DNA of 34,053 nt from an uncultured Bacilli bacterium (GCA_947624695.1 CANQLN010000002.1:1-34053), one strand, 5' to 3'. Counted from the first letter of the stretch, positions 9,294 through 27,973 are shown. The notes: generated by a model not told the origin, from the letters alone. Made by a program: numbers and translations.

Positions 9294-11651
9294 ATGAAGA
9301 ATATGACTAATCAGGCTAAATCTATAGCTAGTAGTACAGCTTCTAGTGTTTCACAAATGAAATCACAATTAAGTAGTTATGGTAAAGCTGTAATGGATAC
9401 TAGCAAGCAACAGGCTTATTTAAAGACTAAAATTGAAGATTTAGAAGATACCTTAAAACAGGCTGATCTAGGTTATGAAGTTGGGGACACAATGAAAATA
9501 GAGGCTGATATAGAAAGACTAAGAAATAGACTTTTGAAATTACAGGCTCAGGGACAACAAGCCGGACAAGTGACTAGCGGAGCTTTTGCAAGAATAAAGA
9601 ACAGCGTTAAAAATGCTATTTCCAATATAAGTGGACTTGGTAAGAAAATGAAAGATGTCGTATCAAACTCCAAAAATATGGGAAAAGGATTATCTAATGC
9701 TTTTAGTAATGGAGTAAAATCCATTAAGAAATTTGCTTTAGCTTTATTAAGTGTAAGAACAGCGTTTAGTGTTATTAGTAGGGCTATGCAATCATATTTA
9801 AGTTTTGATACGCAATTATCTAATTCTATTCAAAATTGTTGGAATGTATTAGGAAGTCTATTAGCACCAATTTTGGAATATCTAGTAGGATTATTCACTA
9901 AATTAGTTAGCTATGTAAATGCCTTTATTAAGGCTTTAACCGGTGTTGATTTAGTAGCTAGGGCTAACGCTAAAGCTATTGATAAACAGGCTAAATCTAC
10001 TAAAGGCTTACAAGAAGCTCAATCTAGCTTAGATGAATTTCATACTATAAATAAAGATTCTTCAAGTGGTGATGATACTCCGTCTATTTCCGTTGGTGAA
10101 GTAGATATGAGTAAATTAGATGTTTTATTTAGTTGGATAGATAAAGCTAAAGAACTTTTAGCAACTCTATTTGATCCTATAAAACAGGCTTGGGACAATA
10201 AAGGAAAAGCGTTTATAGATAGTCTAAAAAATGCGTTCAATGGTATTAAAAATTTAGGAATAGCTGTATTTAGTTCTATTATGGAAGTATGGACTAACGG
10301 AACAGGACAACAAATAGTAGAAAATTTATTAGTTATGTGGACTAATGTATTTAATATAGTTGGGGCTTTCTCACAAGCTCTAGCTAACGCATGGAATAAC
10401 GCTGGTAATGGTACAGCTATTATTCAATCTATAGCCAACATATTTATATCAATCCAAGATTTATGTATAAGTATAGCTAACTCATTATTAAATTGGGTAA
10501 TGAGTGACGGATTCCAACAAGCTTTAAATGTAGTATTTACTATATTAAGAGATTTGTTTGGTTATTTGGAAGAAGTTATAGCTTGGGTTGTAAGTATGTA
10601 TGATACCTACTTAGCTCCTGTAGTTGATAAGATATTAAATTGTATATCTAATATTATTATTGCTATTGGCTCAGTATGGGAATTTCTAAGTCCTTTAATA
10701 GATACGATCATAAATGTAATTATGAATGTATTAGAGCCAGCTATTGATGGCTTGTGCGGAATTATTGGTGGAATAATTGACGCTCTAAGTGGAGTAATGG
10801 AATTTATTACAGGCGTTTTAACAGGTGATTGGGAAAAAGCTTGGACGGGTATTAAAGATTTCTTTAGTGGAATCATTAGTGCTATAGGATCATTATTCTC
10901 AGGCGTAATAAACACAATAATAGCATTATTTAAAGGTGCTTGGGATATAATCAAGTCTGTATGGTCGGTAGTAAGTGGTTGGTTTAATGACGCCATCATA
11001 AAACCTTTAGGAAGCTTCTTTAGTAATATGTGGAATGGATTAAAAAATGGAGCAAAAAACGCTTGGGAGGGTATAAAAAATATCTTCTCATCAGTAGCTA
11101 CATTCTTTAAAAATATATTTAGTAATGCTTGGAATGGTGTTAAAAATATCTTCTCATCAGGCGGGCAAATATTTAGTGGAATCAAAGATGGTATAGCTAA
11201 CGCATTTAAGAAAGTAGTTAATACTTTAATTGCTGGAATAAATAAAGTAGTTGCTATTCCATTTAACGCTATCAACTCAGCCTTAAAGACAGTTAGAGAT
11301 ATTTCATTCTTAGGAATAGAGCCATTTAAAGGTTTAATTAAATTGATAAGTGTTCCACAAATACCTAGCTTAGAAACCGGAGGTGTTTTAGCTGAGGAAA
11401 CTATAGTAAGGGTAGCCGAATATAATAACGCTAAGAGCAATCCGGAAATTGTATCTCCAAAGGATATGATGAAAGAAACATTTATGGAAGCTATTGAAGA
11501 ATCAGGTATGAATACTCAAATGAATCAAAAATTAGAAGTAGAAGTCACAGGAGAAACTAGAATAGATGGTGACGATTTAGTCGTTGTCTATGATAAGGCT
11601 AAAAATAACAAAGGTTATAATGGTGGTAAAAATCCACAATTTGTTTATTAA
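9294..11651 (+). CDS. tail tape measure protein (true N-terminus probably upstream, near 9180)
   Basis: 785 aa; helical with hydrophobic and G/A/N-rich internal repeats (NAWEGIKNIFSS / NAWNGVKNIFSS); synteny. Frame is open from 9174 with the SD-like ggtggtgagg at 9166-9175. Confidence 0.85.
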   Translation: MKNMTNQAKSIASSTASSVSQMKSQLSSYGKAVMDTSKQQAYLKTKIEDLEDTLKQADLGYEVGDTMKIEADIERLRNRLLKLQAQGQQAGQVTSGAFARIKNSVKNAISNISGLGKKMKDVVSNSKNMGKGLSNAFSNGVKSIKKFALALLSVRTAFSVISRAMQSYLSFDTQLSNSIQNCWNVLGSLLAPILEYLVGLFTKLVSYVNAFIKALTGVDLVARANAKAIDKQAKSTKGLQEAQSSLDEFHTINKDSSSGDDTPSISVGEVDMSKLDVLFSWIDKAKELLATLFDPIKQAWDNKGKAFIDSLKNAFNGIKNLGIAVFSSIMEVWTNGTGQQIVENLLVMWTNVFNIVGAFSQALANAWNNAGNGTAIIQSIANIFISIQDLCISIANSLLNWVMSDGFQQALNVVFTILRDLFGYLEEVIAWVVSMYDTYLAPVVDKILNCISNIIIAIGSVWEFLSPLIDTIINVIMNVLEPAIDGLCGIIGGIIDALSGVMEFITGVLTGDWEKAWTGIKDFFSGIISAIGSLFSGVINTIIALFKGAWDIIKSVWSVVSGWFNDAIIKPLGSFFSNMWNGLKNGAKNAWEGIKNIFSSVATFFKNIFSNAWNGVKNIFSSGGQIFSGIKDGIANAFKKVVNTLIAGINKVVAIPFNAINSALKTVRDISFLGIEPFKGLIKLISVPQIPSLETGGVLAEETIVRVAEYNNAKSNPEIVSPKDMMKETFMEAIEESGMNTQMNQKLEVEVTGETRIDGDDLVVVYDKAKNNKGYNGGKNPQFVY

Positions 11652-11664
11652 GGAGGGATAACAA

Positions 11665-12066
11665 ATGAAGAATAATTCAAGTCCATTATTTCTATTTAAT
11701 GGTGAATCGTTGCCGAGTAATCCCTCAGTAGGATATTTAGAGGAGAATGAGCAATTAGTAAATGGTACGAGAAATACCAATGGAAAAACTATTGCTCAAC
11801 CTGTAAATAGAAGAATAAATAAATTTAGTAATTTAGTTTTTCCTATACTTCCTTTAGAGGATTATAATTGGCTAAAAAAGAAAGTAGCTAATTTTGAAGT
11901 TCTACTTACTTATTATGATACGGAAGAAATGCAAGTTTTAGTCCGTAGATTTTATTTTGGTAATTTGAGCGGTACTCCAACAAAATGGGATAATAGTTTT
12001 AAGCCTGTTCAAAAGCCTACTGAATTTAAAGATGTTAAAGTAAACATTATTGATATGGGGTATTAG
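11665..12066 (+). CDS. distal tail protein-like component, tentative
   Basis: 133 aa directly after the tape measure gene; RBS aaggaggg. Confidence 0.3.
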   Translation: MKNNSSPLFLFNGESLPSNPSVGYLEENEQLVNGTRNTNGKTIAQPVNRRINKFSNLVFPILPLEDYNWLKKKVANFEVLLTYYDTEEMQVLVRRFYFGNLSGTPTKWDNSFKPVQKPTEFKDVKVNIIDMGY

Positions 12067-12070
12067 TAAT

Positions 12071-13861
12071 ATGGCAAGTAAAGAAATGATAGAACAATTA
12101 AAAAAGCCAAAAAGAAACTTTGGTTTTTTGAGAGTTAATTTCAATATAATAGATCCTGACACTAATCCAACTTTAACCAGCAATAGTGAAGAAATATATA
12201 GTGATTTGGAAGCAATAAAACAAGCCGATATTATACAAACTAAAAATTATGCAACACTTGAAAAAAACTTTTGGATTCTTAACGGAAGCCAACCAATATA
12301 TGGTAGTGAGAAATTAGATCAAACTTATGTAAGTTCTTTTATGAGTGATGAAAATTGTAAGTTTGGAGAAGAAGCTTGTATTATTCTTACATCTAATATT
12401 TATTTAACTACTTTAGGTTTAAGTATGGTATTTGATAGTATTGATGAAAATTACGCTAAAAAGCTTAATGTTAAGGCTTATAGAGATGAATCTCTTATAA
12501 TGAATAAAGAATATACTTTAGATAGTTATAAAGATAGATTGATATTTGCCGATAATGAGGAATTAGTTAGATGGAATAGGATAGAAATATTCTTTGTAGA
12601 ATCTAGCTTGCCTTTTAGAAGAATACGAGTTAATCAATTATTATTTGGTATTAAGGAAACTTATACCGATGATAATATCATAAGTGCTGAGAGTAAAGAA
12701 AAAACTACTATGATAAACTCGGAGCTACCTACACATACTTTTAAATTTACTATTGAAAATATGAATAAGTTATTTAATCCTGATAATCCACAGGGCTGGT
12801 ATAGATACATATTACAGCAACAACCTATATCTTATGAATGGGGCTATCAATTAGACGATGGGACTATTGAATGGATATTAGGTGGTAATATGTTATTGAC
12901 GGGCTCAGTTGATGTCGGTGAAAATCAAGTAACATTTAGCACTACTACATTGATAAATTATTTAACTAAGGTTTATAAAAAAGGTGTATATAATGCTAAT
13001 GGTAGAAGTTTATATGATCTAGCTGTAGATGTATTAGAAGATAGTGAAATTGATAGTAGCCAATATAATTTATGGGAGGGGTTAAAGTTAATTAAAACTG
13101 ACGCTCCTCTTCCTAAATTAGAGGCTAGACAATTACTACAAATAATAGCAACTACAGGAAATTGTATTTTATTTACTAATAGAGAGAATATAATAAATAT
13201 TCAACCATTTAGCTATGTGTTAAATCCTGATGGAATGGATTATGACTTTATTACTAGCCAACCTGTTGTAAATGTTCAAAGTGAATTATATAACTCTATC
13301 GTTTATATCAATCATTATTTGATAGAAGAAAATGTTAGTGAGTTATTTAAAAATGAATCATTAGAACTAATAGGGGCTGGTACATTAGAAGTAGAATATG
13401 ATCTAGCTACTAATATAAGTGCTTCTATAACAGGAGGAACTATATTAAATGCTAATTATTATGGTAGATATGCTGTGTTAGAAATAAGTAGTGATGGAGA
13501 TTCTCCTATATCTTTGATATTATCCGGAAATAAAATAACAAACAGCCAAACTATTGATTCTAAACAATATAACGCCGATGGTGAAAATATTGAATATAAA
13601 AATGATATAGTTACACAAATGGTTGAAAATTCTAAGACTAAGAAATTAAAAGAATTTATTGGTGATTGGTATAATAATCGTAATATATACTCATTTAGCA
13701 ATAGAGGAGATATATTAAAAGATACTAGAACAATAATGCCGATAGAAACTGATTTTAGTAGTAGCTTAATAGGTTATTTAGTTGAAAATAATATTAAATA
13801 TGATGGTGCTTGGAGTGGAGATAGCGTAGTTGTAAAAGTAGGTGATAATAATGTGGATTGA
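12071..13861 (+). CDS. tail-associated / baseplate hub protein (Tal-like), tentative
   Basis: About 597 aa from ATG 12071; second gene after the tape measure gene. Confidence 0.45.
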   Translation: MASKEMIEQLKKPKRNFGFLRVNFNIIDPDTNPTLTSNSEEIYSDLEAIKQADIIQTKNYATLEKNFWILNGSQPIYGSEKLDQTYVSSFMSDENCKFGEEACIILTSNIYLTTLGLSMVFDSIDENYAKKLNVKAYRDESLIMNKEYTLDSYKDRLIFADNEELVRWNRIEIFFVESSLPFRRIRVNQLLFGIKETYTDDNIISAESKEKTTMINSELPTHTFKFTIENMNKLFNPDNPQGWYRYILQQQPISYEWGYQLDDGTIEWILGGNMLLTGSVDVGENQVTFSTTTLINYLTKVYKKGVYNANGRSLYDLAVDVLEDSEIDSSQYNLWEGLKLIKTDAPLPKLEARQLLQIIATTGNCILFTNRENIINIQPFSYVLNPDGMDYDFITSQPVVNVQSELYNSIVYINHYLIEENVSELFKNESLELIGAGTLEVEYDLATNISASITGGTILNANYYGRYAVLEISSDGDSPISLILSGNKITNSQTIDSKQYNADGENIEYKNDIVTQMVENSKTKKLKEFIGDWYNNRNIYSFSNRGDILKDTRTIMPIETDFSSSLIGYLVENNIKYDGAWSGDSVVVKVGDNNVD

Positions 13862-14387
13862 TCCTATCTATGATAGAACACAAGCCGATGTTGATTTAAT
13901 TAAGCTAGATCCAACTAATGAAAATAATAAAGGTGCTTACAATTACACCGACTTAAATAGAATAGAAAATAATTGTGAATATGTAATGAATCTACTAAAT
14001 AATAGTGGATTATTTTATATTCCTGTAGAAATTAGTGTAAAAACTGATTGGAATGTAAAAGACATACCTCATATTAAAGATATAAATAGAATTAGAAATA
14101 ATATTATAACTTTAATGAATGGTATGAAATTAGGTGAGGAATATGAAGAAATAGAATTTAGTAATACAATGGATTATATTAAAGCTAATATCTTGGAAAA
14201 AGATTTGGCGTTGATAAAGTACATTATTGATTCTTGCATGAGAGAATTAAGAAAATGTAATACTTTCTATTGTGGAGCTAATGGTATTGGTTTATATGCT
14301 AAGCCTGATAATCAAGAGCCTGTTGGCTTTGTAAAAATAAAACGATATGCTGGATTGATATATTGTGGAGAGGAGTTTAGTTTATGA
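13851..14387 (+). CDS. tail-fibre/baseplate-associated protein
   Basis: ATG 13851; the DRTQADVD...KGAYNYTDLNRIENN motif recurs in Firmicute prophage tail-fibre modules as I recall it. Confidence 0.35.
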   Translation: MWIDPIYDRTQADVDLIKLDPTNENNKGAYNYTDLNRIENNCEYVMNLLNNSGLFYIPVEISVKTDWNVKDIPHIKDINRIRNNIITLMNGMKLGEEYEEIEFSNTMDYIKANILEKDLALIKYIIDSCMRELRKCNTFYCGANGIGLYAKPDNQEPVGFVKIKRYAGLIYCGEEFSL

Positions 14388-14839
14388 AACAATATAAACC
14401 AACAAAATGGTTGGATAGAATAGTTCAATTTCCTAATAGATATAAAGATCAGGACGGAAATGAGTTAACTTTAACGCAAGATCCGGGGGAAGTTGCCCAA
14501 GACGGAACTTTGGTAGAAGCGGAAGTTATGAATAATATTGAAGATGGAATTGAATTTTTATATAAAGTTCGTAATTTTAGTTATCAAAAATTATTGTTAG
14601 CTACTAAGTGGACTAAAAATGATGACACAGGATTTTACGAATATGATATAATAGATAAGGACATCACAGCTGATACTATTGTTGATGGAATTTTAGATAT
14701 TGAAAACCAATATAAACTAAATTCTTCCTATACTAATTCTTATGAGGGTGGATTTAAAGTAATAACTACTGAATTGCCTAATGAGGATATAACTATGACA
14801 TTTAGATATTCAATTATGAATAAAGTAGAGGAGGAATAG
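14384..14839 (+). CDS. tail-fibre-associated protein
   Basis: 151 aa; ATGA overlap with the upstream gene; the N-terminal motif GTLVEAEVMNNIEDGI is typical of phage fibre N-termini. Confidence 0.35.
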   Translation: MKQYKPTKWLDRIVQFPNRYKDQDGNELTLTQDPGEVAQDGTLVEAEVMNNIEDGIEFLYKVRNFSYQKLLLATKWTKNDDTGFYEYDIIDKDITADTIVDGILDIENQYKLNSSYTNSYEGGFKVITTELPNEDITMTFRYSIMNKVEEE

Positions 14840-14841
14840 AA

Positions 14842-15957
14842 ATGATTGGAAGTGTTAATGTAGGAAACAGGGCAACTGATAATCTTACTAAAGTTTATGG
14901 TGTAAGAAGATCACTTACTACTTCATCATCAGCTTGGGAACGAATCAGGGACGCTGTTGGACTTGAAGCAAACGCTCAAGTTAATACTAATCCTGTGAAA
15001 AATGATTTTGATAGCATTTATCCGTGGAGTGACATTATTTCTTATAACTATGATATAGTCGGTCAACAAATAACCGCCTATTATGGTGATCCTACCTTTA
15101 AATTTGATGGAAGTAATGGTGATGTTTTAACCAAGATTCCTGAATTTTATTGGAGGAGATATAGAGATAGTGATTATGAATATATCTTAATTTCTAAAAA
15201 TAAATTAGCTGGGTTTGTTAAAAGTGAAGAGTTTTCGGTTGGTAGATATACTATGTCCGGCTCAGCCTCTAGGGTTTATAGTAGAAGTGGACAAGCACCT
15301 CTTACTAATGTCAATATAACAAACTTTAGAAGCTATGCTAGAGCTTTAGGAAAAGGCTTCGGTCAAATGGATTGGCATTATTTCATATTACAAATGTTGT
15401 ATTTAGTAGAATATGCTGATTACAATAGTCAATTAAAACTTGGCTCAGGTTATACTAATAGCTCTCATACAGCTCCCGTTAATAGCGGTCAATGTGATGT
15501 TTTAGGAATGAAGTCGGGAAGTAGAGATGGTACTGACAATACATCAATGATTTATCGTGGTATCGAGGATATATTCGGTAATATATGGCAATTTGTTGAT
15601 GGTATCAACATAAGAGAGCGTAAAGCTTATATATGTTACAATCCTGACAAGTACGCTGTAGATAAATTCAATGATGGTTATACGCCACTAGGATATACCA
15701 ATGACGATGTTACAGGTTATGTATCTAAGTTAGGGTATGATTCTAATAATCCTTTAATAGCTTTGCCTACTGAGGCAACAGGTAGTAGTGATACTAATAT
15801 GTGTGATAATTATTGGCAAAGTGAGGGAGATAGAATTGCTCTTGTCGGCGGGCATTGGTATCACGCTTCTCAAGCTGGCTTGTGGTGTTGGAGTATGACT
15901 GAGCCTTCGTCTAGTGCGTGGGCTGGCCACGGTGCTCGACTTCTTAAAACCAGCTAA
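14842..15957 (+). CDS. DGR target: receptor-binding tail-fibre protein with a C-terminal C-type-lectin/FGE-like variable region
   Basis: 371 aa; last structural gene. The C-terminus LVGGHWYHASQAGLWCWSMTEPSSSAWAGHGARLL carries the VR; invariant G/W/C scaffold residues alternate with positions templated by AAY codons. Confidence 0.8.
   Translation: MIGSVNVGNRATDNLTKVYGVRRSLTTSSSAWERIRDAVGLEANAQVNTNPVKNDFDSIYPWSDIISYNYDIVGQQITAYYGDPTFKFDGSNGDVLTKIPEFYWRRYRDSDYEYILISKNKLAGFVKSEEFSVGRYTMSGSASRVYSRSGQAPLTNVNITNFRSYARALGKGFGQMDWHYFILQMLYLVEYADYNSQLKLGSGYTNSSHTAPVNSGQCDVLGMKSGSRDGTDNTSMIYRGIEDIFGNIWQFVDGINIRERKAYICYNPDKYAVDKFNDGYTPLGYTNDDVTGYVSKLGYDSNNPLIALPTEATGSSDTNMCDNYWQSEGDRIALVGGHWYHASQAGLWCWSMTEPSSSAWAGHGARLLKTS
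15839..15947 (+). repeat. DGR variable repeat (VR)
   Basis: 109 nt collinear with TR1. All 12 mismatches lie opposite TR1 adenines; no mismatch occurs at any non-A position. Confidence 0.85.
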
Positions 15958-15968
15958 AACGGGGGTTT

Positions 15969-16007
15969 GGGGGCGGTCAGCCTCCCATCAATCGACGAAT
16001 GTCGATT
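15969..16007 (+). promoter_or_regulatory. two hairpins just 3' of the VR (candidate DGR target-recognition elements)
   Basis: gggggc-ggtca-gcctcc (15969-15985) and aatcgac-GAAT-gtcgatt (15990-16007, 7-bp stem with tetraloop). The GC-rich stretch follows the VR but neither TR. Confidence 0.5.
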
Positions 16008-16078
16008 ATAAAATAAAAATACCTTTTAAAAGGGATTTGATGTGTTTAGCACCGAGTTAGTCGGGGTTTGTCTTGTGC

Positions 16079-16187
16079 CTCTTGTCGGCGGGAATTGGAA
16101 TCACGATTCTCAAGCTGGCTTGTGGTGTTGGAATATGAATGAAACTTCGTCTAATGCGTGGACTAGCAACGGTGCTCGACTACTTAA
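16079..16187 (+). repeat. DGR template repeat 1 (TR1), cognate to the VR
   Basis: Read in the VR register it gives LVGGNWNHDSQAGLWCWNMNETSSNAWTSNGARLL. 12 of its 26 adenines are substituted in the VR, 0 of 83 non-adenines. Confidence 0.85.
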
Positions 16188-16297
16188 TTTGAAACTAGGT
16201 ATGATAGTTTAATCTTTCCCGCCGACTTGTTTTGGGGAGAAGATTAAAACTAGGGACTTGGTGTGTGTGAGTTCGTGCGTTATTGGTTGTTTGTATG

Positions 16298-16404
16298 CTC
16301 TTGTCGGCGGAGATTGGAATAATACCACACAAGCTGGCTTGTGGTGTTGGAATTGTAATAATGTTTCTTCTAATGCTAACGCTAACATCGGTGCTCGACC
16401 ACTT
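16298..16404 (+). repeat. second, diverged template-like repeat (TR2), with no cognate VR in the window
   Basis: Same length and register as TR1 (219 nt downstream). Shares cttgtcggcgg, caagctggcttgtggtgttggaat and ggtgctcga exactly. Contains 8 AAY codons. Differs from TR1 and the VR at many non-A positions. Confidence 0.7.
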
Positions 16405-16549
16405 ATATTTAAAGTAAAAAACTTACACATCATCTTCCTCAGCCCTTGCTGAAAATTAGTCGTTCTGGGCTGGCTTAGTAGGTTTATCTCCTGAAAAATG
16501 GAATTTCTCGAACAGCTGGTAGGCAAATATAAGAATTGGTGACTCAGGA

Positions 16550-17620
16550 ATGAAAAGAAAAGGATTTATCTATGAAAAGATTGTAGATTTGAACAATATT
16601 GAATTAGCAATCTCAAAAGCTAGTATAGGAAAAGGTAAGAGAAAAAATGTTGAAAAGATATTAGATTCTCCTACTTATTACGCTATGCAAGTACAAAAGA
16701 TGTTAAAGGAAAAAAAGTATGTTCCTAGCCCTTATATCGAGATGAAAATTCACGATGGGGCAAATAAAAAAGAAAGAACAATATATAAACCTAGATTCTA
16801 TCCGGATCAGGTTATTCATTGGGCTTTAATGCTACAAATAGAGCCTCTATTAAAAAAAGGAATGTATGAGTTGTGCTGTGCTTCCGTTAAAAATAGAGGT
16901 ATTCATAGAGGTATGAAATATCTTAAAAGAATACTTGTAGATGATAGGAAATATACTAAATATTGTTTGAAATTAGATGTAAAGAAATTTTATCCTAGTA
17001 TTGATAAGGATATTTTAAAAGCTAAGTTTAGAAGAATAATAAAAGACCAAGATACACTTGATTTAATAGATATTATTATTGATAGTGGTAAAGAGGGATT
17101 GCCTATTGGTAATTATACTTCTCAATGGTTTGCAAACTTCTATTTACAAGACTTAGATCATTATATTAAAGAAGTATTAAAGGTAAAATATTATATCCGT
17201 TACATGGACGATATGGTATTGTTTTCTAATAATAAGAAAGAACTTAGAAAAATAAAATATGCTATTGATGAATTTGTAGCTAATGAAAAATTAGTTATAA
17301 AAGAAAATTGGCAATTATTCAAAGTTAATTCAAGACCAATAGACTTCTTAGGATATAGGTTTTATCGTGGATATACTACTTTAAGGAGAAGTAATTTTTT
17401 GAGGATAAAGAGAAGAGCAAAGAAAATATCTAAGAAAGACGAAATGACTTTCAAAGACGCCTCAGCTATGTTATCTTATAGCGGGTGGTTAAAACATTGT
17501 AATTCTCATAATTATCAGCAAAAATATATTAAGCCATATATTGATTACAAAAAATGTAAGGAGGTTGTAAGAAATGAAAGCAAGAAGTACAATAATTCCT
17601 CCAAAATTCAAAATAGGTGA
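16550..17620 (+). CDS. DGR-type reverse transcriptase
   Basis: 356 aa; YIRYMDDMVLFS (YxDD box); LPIGNYTSQWFANFYL (the [I/L]GxxxSQ motif characteristic of DGR RTs); no maturase or endonuclease extension. Confidence 0.85.
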   Translation: MKRKGFIYEKIVDLNNIELAISKASIGKGKRKNVEKILDSPTYYAMQVQKMLKEKKYVPSPYIEMKIHDGANKKERTIYKPRFYPDQVIHWALMLQIEPLLKKGMYELCCASVKNRGIHRGMKYLKRILVDDRKYTKYCLKLDVKKFYPSIDKDILKAKFRRIIKDQDTLDLIDIIIDSGKEGLPIGNYTSQWFANFYLQDLDHYIKEVLKVKYYIRYMDDMVLFSNNKKELRKIKYAIDEFVANEKLVIKENWQLFKVNSRPIDFLGYRFYRGYTTLRRSNFLRIKRRAKKISKKDEMTFKDASAMLSYSGWLKHCNSHNYQQKYIKPYIDYKKCKEVVRNESKKYNNSSKIQNR

Positions 17621-18071
17621 TAGAAAAGGCAACTTAATTGAGGTTGCTTTTTTTGATGATGTAAAAGAGATTCAAGATCAAGAAGAGGAAGCTACTTCTT
17701 ATGAATACTCAGTTTACAAAATCAAAACCATCTATAGAGAAAAATTAGAGGAATCCATTGAAAACAACTATGAAGCGTGGCTAGAGTTAGCTAAAGATAC
17801 TGATTATCAAGAATTAGCTAAAAAAGTAAGAGAAAAACGAGATGAGCTTTTGGCTGATAGTGATAAACAATTATTGCTGGATAGAATAGGCTTAGATCTA
17901 CCTGAGGACATAAACGCTACTAATCTTTTATTAGTAGTAAAAACTTTATTTGAAAATTTAACAAAAATTTTAAGAGGAGATTGGGCTAAATATAGGCAAG
18001 AGCTAAGAGATATTACTAAGCAAAAGGGATTCCCTTATGATGTGGAATTTCCTAAAAAGCCGGAAGAATAA
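17574..18071 (+). CDS. tail-fibre assembly chaperone-like protein
   Basis: 165 aa; RBS aaggagg; overlaps the RT 3' end by 47 nt. RDELLADSDKQLLLDR...WAKYRQELRDITKQKGFPYDVEFPKKPE resembles the phage tail assembly chaperone motif (..R..LL..sDw...D.....W..YRq.LRDi....gfP.dv.wP..P). Confidence 0.55.
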   Translation: MKARSTIIPPKFKIGDRKGNLIEVAFFDDVKEIQDQEEEATSYEYSVYKIKTIYREKLEESIENNYEAWLELAKDTDYQELAKKVREKRDELLADSDKQLLLDRIGLDLPEDINATNLLLVVKTLFENLTKILRGDWAKYRQELRDITKQKGFPYDVEFPKKPEE

Positions 18072-18088
18072 TTGAGGGAGGTAAGTTA

Positions 18089-18490
18089 ATGAATATTATA
18101 AATATAATTAAAGCTGGCTTAACAGCTATCATAACTTGGATAGGTTGGTTAGTTGGTGGCTATGATACTATGATGATAACGCTTTTAATCATAATGGGAA
18201 TGGATTATATATCAGGCGTTATGTGTGGGATATATAAAAAAGAGTTATCTAGTGAAGTTGGCTTTAAAGGAATCTTTAAAAAAGTAATGATAATTATTTT
18301 AGTGGGAATAACTAATTTATTAGGACAAGCTACAGGTATTGAGGGATTGAGATATGTAACAATCTCTTTTTATTTAGCTAACGAGGGTATATCCGTTGTA
18401 GAAAATGCTTCTATATTAGGATTGCCTATACCACAAAAAATTAAAGATGTATTAGACCAATTAAAAAGTTCATCTAACGAAGAAAAATAA
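18089..18490 (+). CDS. holin (TcdE/phi-LC3-like, Phage_holin_4_1-type)
   Basis: 133 aa; three hydrophobic segments; MDYISGV...KGIFKK...ENASILGLPIP pattern; charged C-terminus; upstream of the endolysin gene. Confidence 0.75.
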   Translation: MNIINIIKAGLTAIITWIGWLVGGYDTMMITLLIIMGMDYISGVMCGIYKKELSSEVGFKGIFKKVMIIILVGITNLLGQATGIEGLRYVTISFYLANEGISVVENASILGLPIPQKIKDVLDQLKSSSNEEK

Positions 18491-19466: not shown

Positions 19467-19502
19467 AGGTAAGGACAATTATGTCCCTACCTCTTTTTTT
19501 TT
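19467..19502 (+). terminator. rho-independent terminator of the late/lysis operon
   Basis: aggtaaggaca-atta-tgtccctacct stem (one mismatch) followed by a run of nine T; overlaps the stop codon of the convergent ORF. Confidence 0.65.
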
Positions 19503-20005
19503 GCTCTAATTTTCTCTAGTTTATATATATAGTCTTGTCCGTATCTATTTATAAATTCTTCTCTTGTATGTTCTTTTAAATATTCTTTTTGAAATTTAAC
19601 TTTATAAAGAAGATTCATTAAAGTATCTTTATGAAATAGCTTATGACAAAAAATACACATTGGAGCTACCATACCATCTTCTATAGATATACTTCTATAT
19701 GATCCGCTAAATATTTCATTTTTTTCAACTCTAGTATATATATTTAATCTTCTATCAAAATCACCCGTTTTTAAGCCACATTCACAGCATTTAGTAAGAT
19801 TAGGATAAATTATACTAAATCTTTCTTTTTCTTTCTTAGCTTGCTTGTTTGTGCGTGATTTTAAGGTTTTATATTGTTTGTATTCTTTATCTTTACAATT
19901 ATGACAATCACTATATTCAATTATCTTCTTTTTAATGGTACAATAAATATATATTTTTTCTTTTTTAGATCTTCTCCTTAGATATTTACAATTCAATTTA
20001 ATCAC
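19487..20005 (-). CDS. Cys-rich HNH/NinG/Ref-like nuclease-family protein, tentative
   Basis: 172 aa. CCECG...NEIFSGSYRSISIEDGMVAPMCIFCHKLFH resembles the C..C...HHIf.G..R..S...GL..pLC..CH signature of phage HNH-type proteins. Opposite strand, between the lysis genes and attP. Confidence 0.4.
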   Translation of the reverse strand: MIKLNCKYLRRRSKKEKIYIYCTIKKKIIEYSDCHNCKDKEYKQYKTLKSRTNKQAKKEKERFSIIYPNLTKCCECGLKTGDFDRRLNIYTRVEKNEIFSGSYRSISIEDGMVAPMCIFCHKLFHKDTLMNLLYKVKFQKEYLKEHTREEFINRYGQDYIYKLEKIRAKKKR

Positions 20006-20257
20006 TCCTTTAGTTAGGTACTAAATAGTGACTAAAAAAGTGAAATTATATAACATTTTAATACTTTATATAACATAGAAATACTTATAAATACTATAAA
20101 TTACAGAGTATAGCATTTAAACAAGTTTTATGTTATAAAAATTAAAATATTACTTTTCCCTTATTTTATAGGGGTTTTTACTTTTTTAGGTACTATTTTA
20201 GGTACTAATAATTCTTTATTTATTTCAACTTGTCAATATTTTTGACAGGTTAATGGC
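20006..20257. other. candidate attP region with repeated arm-type motifs
   Basis: Non-coding, adjacent to the int 3' end. TTAGGTACTA occurs 3 times (20014, 20186, 20198) and TTATATAACAT twice (20046, 20066). Inverted repeat tgtcaa-tattt-ttgaca lies just 5' of the int stop. Confidence 0.45.
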
Positions 20258-21388
20258 TTATAGATTATCTAATAAATCAACTATCTTATCTTGAACACTA
20301 GGGAATAAGTGCATATACACTTCTTGCATAACTCTTAGACTATGTCCCATTCTTTGTGACATCATTAAGAAAAATTTAGTTGAATCAGTTTCTCCTGATC
20401 TAATGTATTCGTTAATACATATACTTACATGAGAATGTCTAAACTCGTGTATAGTTATCATTTCTTTTTCCATATCAGCTAACTTAAAGTATTCTTTTCT
20501 ATGCTTTTGAACTTGATAATCACTTATGACATCACCATTTCCAAAAACATACCAATCTTCACTAAAGTCACTATATTGTTTTACATACTCTTTATATTTT
20601 AATAATTCTTCTCTTAATTTTCTTGACATAGTAATTTCTCTATTTAAGCAATTCTTAGTTGCTGTTATTTTAAATTTTCCTTTTTTAGTGTTAAAGGATA
20701 TAGTCTTATTTATACTAATCATATTGCTATTAAAGTTTATATCTCTCCAAGTTATAGCTAATATTTCTCCTTTTCTCATACCTGTAAAATATAAAGTAAG
20801 AAAGAAACAATGCCATAATTCATCATCTATAACACTTATAAATTTACAATATTGATCGTAAACAATATATCTTAATTTTTTATTTGTTTCAATAACTTCA
20901 TCATTTCTTTTTTTAAAACGCCCTGATAGTTCTACCGGATTATAATTTAATTCATACTTTCTATTAGCAAAAGTGAATATCTCTTTAAAGACAACATAGT
21001 ATTGATTACAAGTGGATATTTTTATTTTTTTATCTATAAGTTTGTTTTTCCAATTTTCTATATCCATAACACTTATTTCATCAATATATTTGCCTTTAAA
21101 ATATGGCTTAATATTATTTTCGTATTGAGATAAATAAGTAAGATATGTAGATTCTCTTAGTCTATGTTCGGCGTCTTTAAAATAATCATCGGCTACTATT
21201 TCAAACCTCTTTTTTATTGGAGCGTCACGATTCATTAAAAATACTCTTTCTTCGGCTCTAGCTTCTTTCTCTAATAAATATCTTTTAGAAGTATAGGGTA
21301 CTAATTTTCCCTCCGTGTTATGATAATATACTTTGAAGCGGTACTGACGCCCATCTTTAGTTTTTTCTTTATCCTTAAATACTGACAT
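20258..21388 (-). CDS. int: tyrosine integrase
   Basis: 376 aa; TGMRKGE, HEFRHSH and MGHS...Y.H catalytic-type motifs (R, HxxR, Y); RBS aaggaag. Confidence 0.9.
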   Translation of the reverse strand: MSVFKDKEKTKDGRQYRFKVYYHNTEGKLVPYTSKRYLLEKEARAEERVFLMNRDAPIKKRFEIVADDYFKDAEHRLRESTYLTYLSQYENNIKPYFKGKYIDEISVMDIENWKNKLIDKKIKISTCNQYYVVFKEIFTFANRKYELNYNPVELSGRFKKRNDEVIETNKKLRYIVYDQYCKFISVIDDELWHCFFLTLYFTGMRKGEILAITWRDINFNSNMISINKTISFNTKKGKFKITATKNCLNREITMSRKLREELLKYKEYVKQYSDFSEDWYVFGNGDVISDYQVQKHRKEYFKLADMEKEMITIHEFRHSHVSICINEYIRSGETDSTKFFLMMSQRMGHSLRVMQEVYMHLFPSVQDKIVDLLDNL

Positions 21389-21404
21389 TTTAGCACTTCC
21401 TTTA

Positions 21405-21433
21405 TTGTTTTATTTTTTGTTCCGTGCTATAAT
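21405..21433 (+). promoter_or_regulatory. sigma-A-type promoter (TTGTTT-17-TGcTATAAT) pointing away from int
   Basis: -35 at 21405-21410; extended -10 at 21425-21433. Confidence 0.4.
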
Positions 21434-21439
21434 GTAAAA

Positions 21440-21546
21440 GGAAACTCATTTACAATTATAGCTTCGGTTATTTTTGTTTAAGATTCGTTAGTCTTATGGG
21501 TTTTCCATTTAACGCTTAGAGTTGCACCTCTAGGCGTCTTTTTTTT
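21440..21546 (+). ncRNA. candidate small RNA of about 105 nt, bounded by a promoter and a terminator
   Basis: Extended -10 promoter upstream; strong + strand terminator at its end; no ORF longer than 7 codons. Contains ttcgttagtcttatgg, complementary to 23116-23131. Confidence 0.3.
21512..21546 (+). terminator. rho-independent terminator, oriented for the + strand
   Basis: acgcttagag-ttgcac-ctctaggcgt (10-bp stem, one G-U pair) followed by c plus eight T. No T-run follows it on the - strand. Confidence 0.6.
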
Positions 21547-21883
21547 ATTTCATTTTACTTATTAAATAATCTTTTATTTTATTTGGCTCAGCCATACAAT
21601 AAAATTCATAGCTACCGGCTGGAGTGTTAATATAAACATCTCCATAGTTAAATATTTTTCCCATAGCTGATTGATTTACTTTTACTGATGTTATTTGTCT
21701 AATTGGTGATTCTAAAGTTTCGGTATGGATCAATCCAACTTTTCCTGAAACCATGTCATCAGTTATTTCTAACTTAGTTGTTAATATTCTAAATATCTTT
21801 TTCCATATAGTAAATAAACCAATAATAAAGATAAATAGTAAACAATCAGGGATAATAGTTTTCCAACTTGTTCTAGCTTTCAT
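21545..21883 (-). CDS. membrane-anchored bacterial PH-domain (bPH_2/YdbS-like) protein
   Basis: 112 aa; N-terminal TM segment, then LEITDDMVSGKVGLIHTETLESPIRQITSVKVNQSAMGKIFNYGDVYI, a pattern typical of bPH_2 domains; lysogeny-module location. Confidence 0.5.
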   Translation of the reverse strand: MKARTSWKTIIPDCLLFIFIIGLFTIWKKIFRILTTKLEITDDMVSGKVGLIHTETLESPIRQITSVKVNQSAMGKIFNYGDVYINTPAGSYEFYCMAEPNKIKDYLISKMK

Positions 21884-22190
21884 TTTTACACCTCCATAAT
21901 CTATTTAAAAATACCTGAACTAGCGTATTTTTTGTCTTAAATGATATTTTATATCCTTTAAATGTAATTTTTTTACATTTAAGACCTGAAAACATACATT
22001 TTAGGGTTAAAGTGATAAATAACTTACATTTATTGGTATAATAAAATATTTAATTTTATAATAGAGCCCCGAGAGGGGGAATTATAGGTTGTTAGACTTA
22101 AAAATTTTTTATAGTGAATTGGAAGATTTAGAAATTGACATTACACTATATAGCTTTTTGATAGAATATTTCTTTTAGAGATATTCTTTC

Positions 22191-22574
22191 TTATTGTTTA
22201 TCTTTCATTATAAATGATTTATTAGCTTTTGCAAACTCAATCAATTTATTAAAATCTTCTTCCGTCATTTCTTCGTTTTCATTTAAAAAACCTTTTCTAG
22301 TTAAAACGTCTTTTAATATAGCTTTTTCTTCCTCTTGACTATATTTTTTCTTTTCACTTTTCATTGGTACATTGAATCCCATTAGCCATACTTCGTCAAC
22401 ATCAAAGAACTCAGCTAGAGTAGTTAGACTATCTTGTTTAGCTTTATATGTTCCTGACAGCCAATGACTAATTTGAGATTTAGCAATACCTGTTTTAGCT
22501 GATAATTCTACAGCTTTTATGTTTTTCATAGCCATAGCTTTTTTAAGTCTATTTGCGAAAGTATCTTCCAACAT
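22191..22574 (-). CDS. CI-like repressor, XRE-family HTH (no S24 peptidase domain)
   Basis: 127 aa; NRLKKAMAMKNIKAVELSAKTGIAKSQISHWLSG is a classical HTH_3; divergent from the cro-like gene. Confidence 0.8.
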   Translation of the reverse strand: MLEDTFANRLKKAMAMKNIKAVELSAKTGIAKSQISHWLSGTYKAKQDSLTTLAEFFDVDEVWLMGFNVPMKSEKKKYSQEEEKAILKDVLTRKGFLNENEEMTEEDFNKLIEFAKANKSFIMKDKQ

Positions 22575-23763: not shown

Positions 23764-24486
23764 ATGAAAGATAATTTTTTATTAAAAAAATCTCAACAAC
23801 AGGTATTTGAAGAGTTATCTAATAATGACGCTGGATTGCTTATAAAAGGTATTTTCAATTATGTAAATACAGGTAATAGCGGATTAGATGGATATTTAAA
23901 AGCTATATTTATTCCTATAAAAATTGAAATTGATAAAAACGAGGAAAGATATGAAGAGGTATGTAAAAGGAATCGTGAGAATGGAAGATTAGGTGGACGA
24001 CCAAAAAAAGAAGAAACCCAAGAAAACCAACCGCTTAATGAAGAAACCGAAGAAAAGCAATCGGTTTTTGAGGAAACCGAAGAAAACCCAAAAAAGCCGA
24101 TAAATCATAATCATACTCATATATCATCACTCACTAATCAAGATTCAAATATCAATATAGATATTATTAAAAGGATAATAGATCATCTAAATTTAAAAAC
24201 TAATAGCAAGTTCAAATATTCTAGTAAAACAACTCAAACAAAAATAAAAGCACGATTGAACGAGGGTTATACACTCGACGACTTCATAGCTGTAATTGAT
24301 AAGAAAACGGACGAGTGGCTAGATAATGAAGAGTTTAGTAAATATTTATGTCCTGAAACGCTATTTGGTACTAAATTTGAGAAATACTTAAATCAAAAAG
24401 TTGTTAATAAAAAGCAACCTGTAAAAAAAGATAAAACGATGGAAATATTGGAGGGCGTTTATAATGGAACAATCAAAATTGATTAG
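23764..24486 (+). CDS. replisome organizer / DnaD-like phage replication protein
   Basis: 240 aa. The C-terminal IIDHLNLKTNSKFKYSSKTTQTKIKARLNEGYTLDDFIAVIDKK...W......YLCPETLFG.KFEKYLNQ is the conserved phage C-terminal (DnaD-like) domain pattern. Carries internal iterons. Confidence 0.6.
   Translation: MKDNFLLKKSQQQVFEELSNNDAGLLIKGIFNYVNTGNSGLDGYLKAIFIPIKIEIDKNEERYEEVCKRNRENGRLGGRPKKEETQENQPLNEETEEKQSVFEETEENPKKPINHNHTHISSLTNQDSNINIDIIKRIIDHLNLKTNSKFKYSSKTTQTKIKARLNEGYTLDDFIAVIDKKTDEWLDNEEFSKYLCPETLFGTKFEKYLNQKVVNKKQPVKKDKTMEILEGVYNGTIKID
24010..24090 (+). repeat. three 21-bp iterons at exact 30-bp phasing (candidate phage ori)
   Basis: gaagaaacccaagaaaaccaa (24010), gaagaaaccgaagaaaagcaa (24040), gaggaaaccgaagaaaaccca (24070), all inside the replication gene. 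Confidence 0.45.
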
Positions 24487-24907
24487 TAGTGTTATAGCAA
24501 AATTAAGAATAGCTTATCCATATTACTTTAAAGAGTTAGATGAAGAAACAATTATAGGATTAGTAAAAATGTATCAGGATCAAATAGTTGGATATGCTCC
24601 ACAAGTTGTTGTTAAGTCAATAGATCAAATAATAAAAACATCTAAGTTTATGCCGACTATTGCTGAAATATTAGAAAAATGTGAATCTAATAAATTATCT
24701 TACACAATACCTATCATTGAGAAGATGAAAGAAGCTGGGTATTTTAAAGATACAAAAGAAATAGAGAAAACTTACACATTCATAGAAAGAGGAATCATTC
24801 CTAATTGGTTATTAGAAGATATGAAAAAGTATGGATATGTTGAATATGAAGCTTTAACTAATTCTAGTAATGAGGCTAAGTTGTTAGGAGGTGTTGAAAA
24901 TGTTTGA
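24464..24907 (+). CDS. helicase loader, SPP1 G39P-like
   Basis: 147 aa; LRIAYPYYFKEL...VKMYQDQIVGY...VVKSIDQIIKTSKFMPTIAEILEKC resembles the G39P N-terminal domain pattern; follows the origin-binding gene. Confidence 0.5.
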   Translation: MEQSKLISSVIAKLRIAYPYYFKELDEETIIGLVKMYQDQIVGYAPQVVVKSIDQIIKTSKFMPTIAEILEKCESNKLSYTIPIIEKMKEAGYFKDTKEIEKTYTFIERGIIPNWLLEDMKKYGYVEYEALTNSSNEAKLLGGVENV

Positions 24908-25172
24908 TTACATTAAATTAAGAAAAAAATATAACACCTTAGAAAATAAATATGAAACTTTAAAGAGTGCTGTAGAAGATGATCTCTTTAAAAAAATGAT
25001 GGATAAATTATGTAGTCCCGTAGAGATAGAAAGACTACGATTAGAAAATAAAAATTTAAGAACTAAATTAAAAGAAAGTAAGGAGGAATTGAAGAAATGG
25101 CAACAGCCACAAAAAAGAAAGAAGATACAAAAAAATCTTACAACTTCGGTGAAAAGAAACAAGAGTATATAA
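24900..25172 (+). CDS. hypothetical coiled-coil protein
   Basis: ATG 24900 lies 8 nt after aggagg; K/E-rich; its 3' end overlaps the next gene by 76 nt. Confidence 0.4.
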   Translation: MFDYIKLRKKYNTLENKYETLKSAVEDDLFKKMMDKLCSPVEIERLRLENKNLRTKLKESKEELKKWQQPQKRKKIQKNLTTSVKRNKSI

Positions 25173-25924
25173 ACGGGCAAACAATACCTGTAGAATTTAT
25201 TACACCAAAGTATAAAGAAGCTCGTAAAAAAGTTATTGAGTTATTAGAAAGTGAAAAATATAAAGATGTATTGGAGGAAAGTGATTTTTGGATATTAGTT
25301 AATACATACGCTAATAAAACTAAAGCTATGTATAGTGGACTTATTATTAGCCACGATGGTTGTCTAAAAATCAATGATGTATTAGATGATAATTTAAAAT
25401 TCAAGCCTGAATGTATGACTATCGATAAAGAGGGATTTAATAATTCATTAGTATTTATCTATAATTGTCCGGATCAGGGAATATATGAGGTTGGAGAAGT
25501 AAGTAAAGATAATTGTAAGAATGACTATCCTTATGCTATGGCACTAAAAAGGTGCATGGATAGAGTAATCTTAAAGAATAGTAAGATTGCTTACTCAGGT
25601 GTTTATAGTGATAGTGAAGCTGACGAATTTAGTAAAAGAGTAGATGAAACTGAAACTACCGAAGAAACACCAAAGACAACTAAAAAAACAACTACTAAGG
25701 CTACATCTAAAAAAGATGAGATTATGATTCAAGAAAATCAAATAGAAATTATTAAAAAATTATATACAGCCGAAGAGTTAAAACCTTTAATGCAACATAT
25801 AGGGAAAGTTAAAGTAACCGAACTTACTTTACTTGAAGCAAGTAGCTTAATAAAAAGAAAAGAAAACAAAAAAGTAGAAGATCCTGTGGAAGTACCACAA
25901 GACGATGATAATTATTTAGATTAG
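25097..25924 (+). CDS. putative single-strand annealing protein (Rad52-like superfamily, Sak/Sak3/ERF-type)
   Basis: 275 aa; RBS aaggagga; YPYAMALKRCMDRVILK resembles the A.KRa..R motif of phage SSAPs; T/K-rich linker; adjacent to exonuclease and SSB genes. Confidence 0.4.
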   Translation: MATATKKKEDTKKSYNFGEKKQEYINGQTIPVEFITPKYKEARKKVIELLESEKYKDVLEESDFWILVNTYANKTKAMYSGLIISHDGCLKINDVLDDNLKFKPECMTIDKEGFNNSLVFIYNCPDQGIYEVGEVSKDNCKNDYPYAMALKRCMDRVILKNSKIAYSGVYSDSEADEFSKRVDETETTEETPKTTKKTTTKATSKKDEIMIQENQIEIIKKLYTAEELKPLMQHIGKVKVTELTLLEASSLIKRKENKKVEDPVEVPQDDDNYLD

Positions 25925-25936
25925 GAGGAAATAAAA

Positions 25937-26251
25937 ATGAATGAATTAGTAAAAATTGAAAATAACGATATAGTTATTGATAGTGATTTTATAGAAAAAT
26001 ATAGAAATTTTAAAAAATTACAATTAGAAATGGATCTAATGGAAAAGGATCTAAAAGCAAAACTAAAAGAAGCTATGGAAAAGTTAGGAAAAGAAAATTT
26101 TATAGTAGATGGATTCTCAGCAAAAATTAGAGCTGGTTATACAAAATCTACTTTTGATTCAAAGAGATTTGAAAAAGAATGTCCTAAAATTTATAACGAG
26201 TATAAAAAAGAAACAAGTGTATCTAGTTCAATTATTATAGAAGTTGAATAA
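25937..26251 (+). CDS. hypothetical protein of the recombination module
   Basis: 104 aa; RBS taggagga. Confidence 0.5.
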   Translation: MNELVKIENNDIVIDSDFIEKYRNFKKLQLEMDLMEKDLKAKLKEAMEKLGKENFIVDGFSAKIRAGYTKSTFDSKRFEKECPKIYNEYKKETSVSSSIIIEVE

Positions 26252-26855: not shown

Positions 26856-27207
26856 CAAAGTAACAATAAGCTTAAATGAATATAAAGATTTATTATTACA
26901 TTCAAAAGAAAATATAACGCCAATAGAAAAAATACTATTGGATAGAATATTGGATTATATCAAAGAAAAATTAGTATGGGAAAAAGATTGGAATGATAAA
27001 TACACGCTAAAATTTAAAAATTTTGATGAATCTAATTTACTAGATTTAATTAAGTATGTTGATCCTATTACTTATCAAGATATTTATAAATATATAAGTG
27101 ATGAAAGTTATAGAAAACAATGTGACGATTTAAAAATGGAAAGATTAAGAGCCATTAAAGAACTAAAACAAGAATCTAATTTTAAGGAGGAAGAAAATGA
27201 AAAGTAA
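26848..27207 (+). CDS. hypothetical protein
   Basis: 119 aa; overlapping start; coding-like composition. Confidence 0.5.
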   Translation: MNNKVTISLNEYKDLLLHSKENITPIEKILLDRILDYIKEKLVWEKDWNDKYTLKFKNFDESNLLDLIKYVDPITYQDIYKYISDESYRKQCDDLKMERLRAIKELKQESNFKEEENEK

Positions 27208-27959: not shown

Positions 27960-27973
27960 TTAGGTGATATTCA

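Follow-up and report, generated by a model that had tools for sequence, protein, structure and literature searches.

A tail-gene diversity-generating retroelement with a likely second, tandem template in a temperate phage of gut Bacilli

We analyzed a 34,053-nucleotide (nt) stretch of DNA from an uncultured Bacilli bacterium (GCA_947624695.1 CANQLN010000002.1:1-34053; henceforth the window, with coordinates counted over its full length), which carries what is almost certainly a diversity-generating retroelement (DGR). Its host is a temperate, siphovirus-like phage of gut Bacilli (of the kind found in 'Tenericutes'-type metagenome-assembled genomes (MAGs)), and its DGR is devoid of the accessory protein Avd. 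A DGR on the tail fibre of a gut phage joins a very large class and is ordinary by itself. Here, however, the variable repeat (VR) at the end of the last tail gene and the reverse transcriptase (RT) gene are separated by two tandem template repeats (TRs): TR1, the source of the present VR, and TR2, which adjoins the RNA elements preceding the RT gene. We regard the adenine-specific copying from TR1 to VR, the class of the RT, the predicted fold of the target and an RNA helix around the templates as the firm parts of this account. That the element is a DGR and TR2 at the same time a genuine template cassette of it is, in our estimation, quite probable; that TR2 is competent as an alternative template we consider fairly likely.

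The copied repeat, the reverse transcriptase and the target protein

The core of the element consists of the following features:

14842..15957, plus strand: target gene, coding for a tail protein of 371 amino acids (aa) with a C-terminal variable domain of predicted C-type-lectin (CLec)/FGE type, as judged by PHROG 5302 and the predicted structure
15839..15947, plus strand: VR, the last 38 codons of the coding sequence 14842-15957
16079..16187, plus strand: TR1, source template of the present VR, with 26 A and six AAY codons
16298..16406, plus strand: TR2, candidate second, alternative template, with 27 A and eight AAY codons, in frame, stop-free and with the same arms and core
16550..17620, plus strand: DGR reverse transcriptase, 356 aa, Pfam RVT_1

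The three 109-nt repeats are in register. The earlier note on this DNA had reported that VR and TR1 align over 109 nt without indels and with 12 mismatches, all at TR1 adenines, and our own count reproduces this: the alignment is gap-free and the TR1 base is A at 12/12 mismatches, such that 12 of 26 A but none of 83 non-A positions are substituted (Fisher p = 3.1e-9), which is the A-only pattern that a VR/TR A-bias check looks for. Conversely, none of the 12 mismatches falls at an adenine of the VR, and therefore the information has flowed from TR1 to VR. The resulting codon changes (N338H, N340Y, D342A, N351S, N353T, E354E, T355P, N358S, T361A, S362G, N363H and L367L) comprise ten amino-acid substitutions and two silent changes, chiefly in AAY codons, and the residues of the LVGG, QAGLWCW and GARLL motifs are identical between TR1 and VR; the codon comparison thus agrees with the earlier description of a fixed scaffold with changes mainly in AAY codons. 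The twelfth mismatch, CTA to CTT at nt 15942, lies 3' of the shared arm GGTGCTCGAC and, on comparison with related loci, is most likely a fixed difference of the VR flank rather than a mutagenesis event, because the VRs of the family all read TTCTTA there irrespective of their template (24/24 distinct VR downstream sequences, the templates reading TACTTA, CACTTA or TTATTA). Within the arm-bounded tract the count becomes 11 of 23 A and none of 79 non-A (p = 7.6e-9). The tract replaced by complementary DNA (cDNA) is probably 15839-15940, between the 5' arm CTCTTGTCGGCGG and the said 3' arm, with TTCTTA following at 15941-15946. A search of both strands for further matches to TR1 or TR2 with at most 30 non-A mismatches found none elsewhere in the window.

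On the enzyme side, the closest solved relative of the RT is the DGR-type 8ub7, which matches residues 7-322 at E 1e-34; after it come a group II intron RT at 1.6e-10 and, at 1.6e-10 and 5.6e-10, two chains whose deposition describes them as retron-type RTs. The LPIGNYTSQWFANFY segment aligns with IPIGSLTSQLFANVY of 8ub7, and both motifs that had previously been placed in this open reading frame (ORF) were located, YMDD at 17201-17212 and IGNYTSQ at 17105-17125. The NCBIfam RT models reach 67-81 bits against cut-offs of 200-300 (80.7 against 300 for group II), and PADLOC returns generic RT-domain matches only (group II, retron, DRT) of at most 105 bits; 8ub7 thus ranks first, and the group II, retron and defence RT models are generic matches far below their cut-offs. 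No ORF for Avd was found between VR and RT, nor any Avd-like Pfam match among the 39 window ORFs scanned. The description of the DGR as 'complete' therefore stands for RT, TR and VR and fails for the accessory protein. DGRs free of accessory genes make up 29% of 372 in a published survey (Wu et al. 2018, PMC5758913).

The target belongs to the PHROG 5302 family 'tail protein' (E 3e-57). An AF2 model built from a 101-sequence alignment attains a pLDDT of 94.7 (an earlier model from a 38-sequence alignment, with a pLDDT of 62, a disordered VR and only noise in Foldseek, was discarded). In a Foldseek search of the PDB, the top match of this model is 5VF4 (E 1e-10, probability 1.0), which is TaqVP, a CLec-fold protein (PMC6328139); further matches are five Mtd variants (1yu0-1yu4, E 3e-4 to 3e-3), the FGE-like enzyme PvdO and TvpA (2y3c, E 0.03). 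Among the predicted viral structures of BFVD, the target resembles over its whole length (TM up to 0.92) 'tail collar fibre' and crAss-like tail-fibre proteins, and the N-termini of its homologues are of the Mtd_N, BppU_N, tail-collar or prepilin kind. The predicted structure thus supports a CLec/FGE-type fold as in DGR variable proteins, and the earlier assignments of this fold and of the gene as the last of the tail module both find backing here. Altogether, the A-only TR/VR pair, the 8ub7-like RT and a predicted target fold like that of solved DGR variable proteins bear out the DGR reading of this locus. By analogy with other phage DGRs, variation of the VR may serve receptor-tropism switching.

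Several homologues of the target (P0158, P0185, P0187, P0207, P0209 and others), with ~60-65% identity over 95% of the query, are fused to PF07963. Since these tail-tip homologues are joined to a prepilin-type N-terminal methylation domain, the DGR-diversified module may also sit on cellular type IV pilin-like proteins.

The second template and the cassette arrays of relatives

TR2 lies between 254 and 145 nt before the RT start. About 50 relatives possess a single template; measured from the same point, their VR spans ~500 to 390 nt and their TR ~245 to 130 nt upstream. TR2 is thus in the slot of the only TR of these relatives, and TR1 is an extra unit. TR2 shows 13 non-A differences from the VR, and its diagnostic non-A bases lie in codons 341-343 (AAT ACC ACA), 352 (TGT) and 360 (AAC). 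No separate VR for TR2 was found in the window by a search that ignored A positions. The earlier note used the label 'TR1' and discussed neither a second template nor the RNA elements. Two plus-strand ORFs, 16042-16212 (56 aa) and 16258-16452 (64 aa), run over TR1 and TR2; they owe their existence to the VR reading frame being kept in the templates and are unlikely to be genes.

To place this layout in its family, we considered the clade with at least 75% RT identity, in which 25 loci include the VR (individual loci are designated by L-numbers below). Their arrays hold 1-10 cassettes, with at least two in 24/25 loci, and the window array is a minimal one of two units. Each unit consists of the 5' arm CTCTTGTCGGCGG, ~75-80 variable nt around a conserved core, the 3' arm GG(T/A)GCTCGAC, the sequence YWCTTAT and a spacer, in which a motif that we term pre (considered below) is the sole conserved part. 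The source of each VR was assigned by dynamic programming over its own array, with a mismatch at a template A being cheap, other mismatches costly and a switch between cassettes penalised. In this manner 13/25 VRs are explained with no non-A mismatch, whereas in a control that makes C, G or T the cheap base no mismatch finds an explanation. VRs with a single source cassette and no non-A mismatch derive from cassettes of rank 1/2 (this window), 2/7, 6/7 (twice), 1/4, 2/4, 5/5 and 2/2, and five VRs are two-segment mosaics, namely those of L014, L021, L081 and L082 (junction in the conserved core) and of L003 (with a 5' segment of only 16 nt).

The RT-proximal cassette, the equivalent of TR2, is by this assignment the template of the whole VR in L083 and L086 (no non-A mismatch) and in L091, L093 and L096 (one non-A mismatch each), and the source of the 5' part of the VR in L014, L081 and L082. 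In the closest relative (L081, 92% RT identity), the 5' part of the VR comes from the RT-proximal cassette in the TR2 slot and the 3' part from the TR1 orthologue, with seven A-site changes and no others. Further, L010 and L011, two independent contigs, are identical over 8000 nt bar three positions, every one of them a VR position that faces an adenine of cassette 6/7; this comparison of sequences is the best available, if indirect, evidence for current activity in the family and for the use of non-proximal cassettes in place. Judging by these orthologues, TR2 may likewise be in use in the phage of the window.

We also considered whether the array cassettes might be general targets of A-mutagenesis, that is, 'non-coding VRs', and rejected this, as orthologous cassettes show no excess of change at A (variation per column of 0.037 for A, 0.057 for C, 0.028 for G and 0.047 for T) and, of 173 cassettes, a single one is a copy of a sister cassette with changes at A only. 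They are therefore protected templates that are rarely overwritten. The lone copy, at 5566-5667 of L081 (-334 from the RT start), differs from 5256-5357 (-644) by ten mismatches, all at template A, and implies that mutagenic cDNA is able to overwrite a template occasionally. Many cassettes are adenine-poor, lack AAY codons and resemble already-diversified sequence (for example, L001 at -1283, -798 and -651, and L003 at -1107 nt from the RT start); some of them do act as templates, with the VR of L003 differing from one by one or two A changes and that of L083 deriving from a cassette with 14 A. Such cassettes may be either VRs that were archived or templates that have decayed. In L058 (68% RT identity), which has one template, an adenine-depleted third copy with a VR-type TTCTTAAAAA flank lies between VR and TR, at -373 from the RT start, and looks like a stranded former VR.

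A broader proposal would be a retroelement-driven cassette library, in which tandem templates compete by pairing for one RT-binding module, are occasionally writable (because the -334 cassette of L081 is an A-only copy of that at -644) and in which adenine-poor cassettes archive earlier tips. We consider it unlikely; were it true, the phage would pick a scaffold and mutate it, and its adenine-poor cassettes would constitute a heritable memory of receptor solutions.

RNA elements, a proposed mechanism and its alternatives

The non-coding elements around the repeats are:

15969..15986, plus strand: GC-rich hairpin GGGGGC-GGTCA-GCCTCC, downstream of the VR
15991..16006, plus strand: second VR-downstream hairpin, ATCGAC-GAAT-GTCGAT
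16032..16045, plus strand: pre1, GGGATTTGATGTGT, 5' strand of a long-range 'stop' helix for TR1
16253..16266, plus strand: pre2, GGGACTTGGTGTGT, 5' strand of the stop helix for TR2
16425..16438, plus strand: post, ACACATCATCTTCC, the one 3' strand of this helix, located after the last template
16440..16533, plus strand: RT-18 RNA (Rfam RF03021), between TR2 and RT, 55.9 bits against a gathering score of 41.3

The motif GGGAYTTGRTGTGT stands upstream of each template, and post can form 12 of 14 pairs with either pre1 or pre2. Across the family, the pre motif lies 20-42 nt upstream of the cassette in 102/111 distinct cassette-upstream regions and before none of the 25 VRs; 10-14 of 14 pairs are possible between each pre and the post of its own locus, and there is just one post strand and one RT-18 per array. 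An unguided RNAalifold prediction over 42 diverse relatives recovers GGGA:UUCC and UGAUGUGU:ACACAUCA around the TR, with double-sided changes at five pairs. When the stop helix was itself named as the structure to be tested, double-sided changes were seen at eight pairs, and 99.7% of cells were paired, against 91% in shuffles (none of 500 gets as high as the real alignment) and 32-59% with a slid partner. The compensatory changes include ACATGTCA/TGACATGT, ACATATCA/TGATATGT, ACATACCA/TGGTATGT and ACATTA/TAATGT. Directly 3' of the helix comes a 4-bp stem with a CUUG loop (14-17 double changes at three pairs), which is the first stem of RT-18, followed by the A-run AAAAU.

Of all Rfam families, RT-18 alone attains its gathering score in the window, in one copy that ends 17 nt upstream of the RT start; of 12 relatives (47-92% RT identity), ten likewise have one RT-18, and no more, just before the RT. 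The RT-10 motif is the TR-RT spacer of the Bordetella phage BPP-1, and the other RT motifs have been guessed to serve other DGRs (PMC5737381); RT-18 is evidently the spacer RNA of the present DGR lineage. In BPP-1, the 'cPRT Stop', a TR-flanking duplex followed by a tetraloop stem-loop and then by unpaired adenosines, ends cDNA synthesis and is needed for priming, and putative equivalents were recognized in 207 of 278 Avd-containing DGRs, the set analysed in that work (Handa et al., bioRxiv 10.1101/2023.10.23.563531). The predicted stop helix, tetraloop hairpin and A-run of the window phage have the layout of this BPP-1 element, here in an Avd-less lineage.

A different set of elements distinguishes the VR. 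The sequence GGGGGTTTGGGGGCGRYCAGCCTCCC is near-invariant behind every VR and absent behind every TR, and the DNA fold of 15955-16012 has z = -3.8. The stem of the second hairpin covaries in relatives (CGAC/GTCG, CGCC/GGCG, CCGAC/GTCGG), with GAAA or GTAA in some loops. The TTCTTA flank, the GC-rich hairpin and the covarying second hairpin occur behind VRs alone and not behind TRs, and are candidate marks of the recipient. Target recognition in BPP-1 needs a GC-rich, GRNA-looped hairpin (PMC3240598), which the VR-downstream hairpins resemble. In the TR1-TR2 spacer, we additionally observed a 62-nt insertion (16193-16254) with AACTAGG direct repeats at its edges, which is absent from all 160 related loci. 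It forms a hairpin, TTTAATCTTTCCC...GGGGAGAAGATTAAA. Within the loop stands CCCGCCGAC, reverse-complementary to the 5' arm GTCGGCGGG that VR, TR1 and TR2 have in common. Either a small mobile insertion or an RNA element pairing with the 5' end of a template could account for it.

Briefly, we propose the following mechanism. A single transcript would comprise pre1-TR1-pre2-TR2-post-RT-18, probably together with the RT mRNA. The RT would be bound to the RNA module 3' of the templates, made up of the post strand, the tetraloop hairpin, the A-run and the remainder of RT-18, and post would pair with a pre strand upstream of a template to form a cPRT Stop equivalent that frames the stretch to be copied. 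The RT would then make a cDNA of the template, misincorporating opposite adenines, and this cDNA would swap into the VR between the arms common to VR and templates. The VR, and no template, would be marked as recipient by the TTCTTA flank and the GC-rich hairpins behind it. The outcome would be new residues at ~10 positions of the CLec-fold tip of the last tail protein and presumably new receptor specificities. Hence a single VR and a single downstream RNA module would be contested by two templates (2-10 in relatives) and, as each template has its own pre strand, the choice of a scaffold would be combined with adenine mutagenesis. Mosaics of TR1 and TR2 would, on such a two-template model, switch inside CAAGCTGGCTTGTGGTGTTGGA.

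How TR1 is primed calls for a working model, in which the post/RT-18 module pairs with the pre of the chosen cassette, CUUAU supplies the template side of the initiation duplex and downstream cassettes are looped out. We favor this form because pre and CUUAU are the two short elements conserved in every unit; template choice by alternative pre:post pairing, with initiation at CUUAU, nevertheless remains a tentative suggestion. In this hypothesis, the CUUAU after the templates and the A-rich stretch before post would form a candidate template:primer duplex, in a region too AU-rich for covariation to be telling, and the priming site is a putative one. For upstream cassettes, target-primed initiation from the shared 3' arm is an alternative. 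A further candidate, read-through of the whole array into cDNA followed by loop-out, is disfavored, as the 5' segment comes from the RT-nearer cassette in 5/5 mosaics, the opposite of its prediction; this sample of mosaic orientations is small (n = 5), and that of L003 rests on a 16-nt segment.

Several points weigh against the account given above. The VR of the window is wholly TR1-derived, such that no use of TR2 is visible there, and a TR1-specific 28-mer found no match in IMG/VR or the JGI metagenomes, such that this search for population variants of the phage came up empty. Only the last cassette adjoins the post strand and RT-18, and no second RT-18-like element was found behind TR1, even at E up to 10. 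In the relatives, 4/25 VRs are poorly explained, with 7-18 non-A mismatches to their own arrays; the relatives are, moreover, all metagenome assemblies, and chimeras of co-existing VR variants could account for part of the mosaic VRs, although even an assembly chimera of this kind would imply that both cassettes are used. The target fold is that of a predicted structure: the target has no Pfam (FGE-sulfatase included) or NCBIfam match, and an HMM profile of its family found no match among PDB sequences. Finally, 8ub7 is taken to be the BPP-1 bRT, in keeping with its length of 328 aa, the entry being titled simply 'Reverse transcriptase'.

These points have to be set against what other explanations can accommodate. 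An ordinary single-template DGR, in which TR1 alone works and TR2 is a disused duplicate (or a bypassed ancestral template), is somewhat unlikely in our view. It sits well with a VR that fits TR1 only, with the 13 non-A differences of TR2 and with the empty search for population variants of the phage. However, TR2 retains the arms, the core, an open frame, its eight AAY codons, its own pre and the neighboring post and RT-18, features that one would expect an AT-rich phage to lose from a copy that is dead, and RT-proximal cassettes, in the TR2 slot, serve as VR templates in some relatives. We hold it improbable that the cassettes are instead reshuffled by recombination between arms, with the RT-proximal one alone being copied and the VR made at a time when a TR1-type cassette adjoined the RT: one post and one RT-18 per array, as well as the varying order and content of cassettes among related arrays, would fit such a history, but the arrays of L010 and L011 are identical while their VRs differ by fresh A-site changes from cassette 6/7, the window VR has no non-A difference from the non-proximal TR1, and the retention of the pre motif before nearly every cassette, with the other parts of the spacers having diverged, argues for function in place.

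That the VR was diversified formerly and the element is now inactive in this phage, a fossil, we judge to be of low probability. A lone assembled sequence cannot reveal activity, and the 62-nt insertion in the TR1-TR2 spacer, found in no relative, might disturb the RNA; on the other hand, the RT ORF is unbroken and keeps its catalytic motifs, the RT-18 match exceeds its gathering threshold, both possible stop helices are intact, the absence of non-A differences between TR1 and VR suggests a recent event, and a near relative shows signs of current activity (L010/L011). Scarcely credible, lastly, is an origin of the repeats by ordinary duplication or gene conversion beside an RT of retron, group II intron or Abi/DRT defence type. 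The generic NCBIfam and PADLOC RT-domain matches to group II, retron and DRT models could be cited in its favor, but they fall far under the family cut-offs (for example, 80.7 against 300 bits for group II); a DGR RT is the best solved relative by 24 orders of magnitude, only RT-18 reaches its Rfam gathering score, and a 12/12 restriction to adenines is not produced by recombination or drift (p = 3e-9).

Genomic setting, significance and relation to known systems

The neighborhood of the element includes:

9294-11651: tape measure protein
11665-14839: four genes unnamed by the libraries, between tape measure and target
17574-18071: tail-fibre assembly chaperone, after the DGR

The chaperone is followed by a holin and an M23 endolysin, and the target is the last gene of the tail module, ahead of the lysis genes. 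Other phage genes lie at 19487-22574 on the minus strand and 23764-28495 on the plus strand, coding for an integrase (20258-21388), a bPH_2 protein, an HTH repressor, replication proteins, SSB and NinB. As an integrase, a CI-like repressor, SSB and NinB are present, the phage is a temperate one. A weak terminase C-terminal match stands at the start of the window (13-405, plus strand). The window has the appearance of a complete temperate phage genome, and the contig may be circularly permuted, because it combines this phage gene set with a terminase C-terminal match at its very start. A megablast of 14000-18100 against GenBank phages gave no match; the closest relatives occur as prophages in MAGs from the gut that bear the label Tenericutes, Bacilli or Mollicutes.

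If tandem templates do yield mosaics, they would open sequence space beyond the adenine-encoded positions, a retro-transfer analogue of silent-cassette antigenic variation. With an upstream helix strand for each cassette and but one downstream strand and RT-18, these arrays amount to a natural experiment on template selection, priming and termination by DGR RNA. In a lineage without Avd, the RNA could reveal how reverse transcription is organised without a protein that is essential in the only well-studied system. Likewise, the orphan Rfam motif RT-18 gains a concrete context as the spacer RNA of a DGR lineage, and compact multi-template, Avd-free DGRs would be attractive for the DGR-based targeted-mutagenesis tools that are now in development.

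Among known systems, the DGR of BPP-1 (mtd-VR, avd, TR, brt) offers the closest parallel. It shares with the window phage the CLec tail-fibre tip, a C-terminal VR and A-specific copying of a nearby TR, and its RT is presumably (as 8ub7) the closest solved relative of the RT described here. Both have a hairpin or hairpins downstream of the VR (PMC3240598) and a TR-flanking RNA duplex with a tetraloop stem-loop and adenosines (10.1101/2023.10.23.563531). In contrast to BPP-1, the phage has no Avd, and the upstream strand of its helix is non-coding RNA rather than the end of avd; its spacer RNA is RT-18 as against the RT-10 of BPP-1 (PMC5737381), and it has two templates instead of one. Further, no clear difference block of the IMH/IMH* kind is seen, the VR of the phage being marked mainly by the constant TTCTTA and the invariant GC-rich element. 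The Avd-less DGRs of Architecture A/Lineage 3 (Wu et al. 2018, PMC5758913) have the same one-strand core of target-VR, TR and RT with no accessory gene, a likeness of architecture; several templates per VR, as found here, were not reported in that survey. On the target side, TaqVP (5VF4), from a Thermus aquaticus prophage, is the best structural match across the 371-aa model and shares the G..D..GN.W.(F/W) pattern and a ~40-residue C-terminal VR (PMC6328139), but differs in its N-terminal part, with an identity of 17% and TM of 0.47.

More than one TR per RT also occurs in the multi-TR DGRs of the crAss-like phage Lera (TR1-VR1, TR2-VR2, TR3-VR3; PMC12386605) and of the loci in PMC6642488. There, however, each TR has its own VR, whereas here tandem cassettes with identical arms share one VR and one RNA module, and mosaic VRs arise in the family. 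In the literature searched, whose coverage is partial such that an earlier description is possible, we found no account of several tandem templates for one VR; relative to described DGRs, tandem templates that share one VR, each with its own stop strand, thus appear to be new. A parallel outside the DGRs is found in the pilS/pilE system of Neisseria and the vls system of Borrelia, in which arrays of silent cassettes donate segments to one expressed locus by DNA gene conversion, giving mosaics. In the phage, unlike in these systems, the transfer would proceed through RNA and an error-prone RT, adding point diversification to the choice of cassette.

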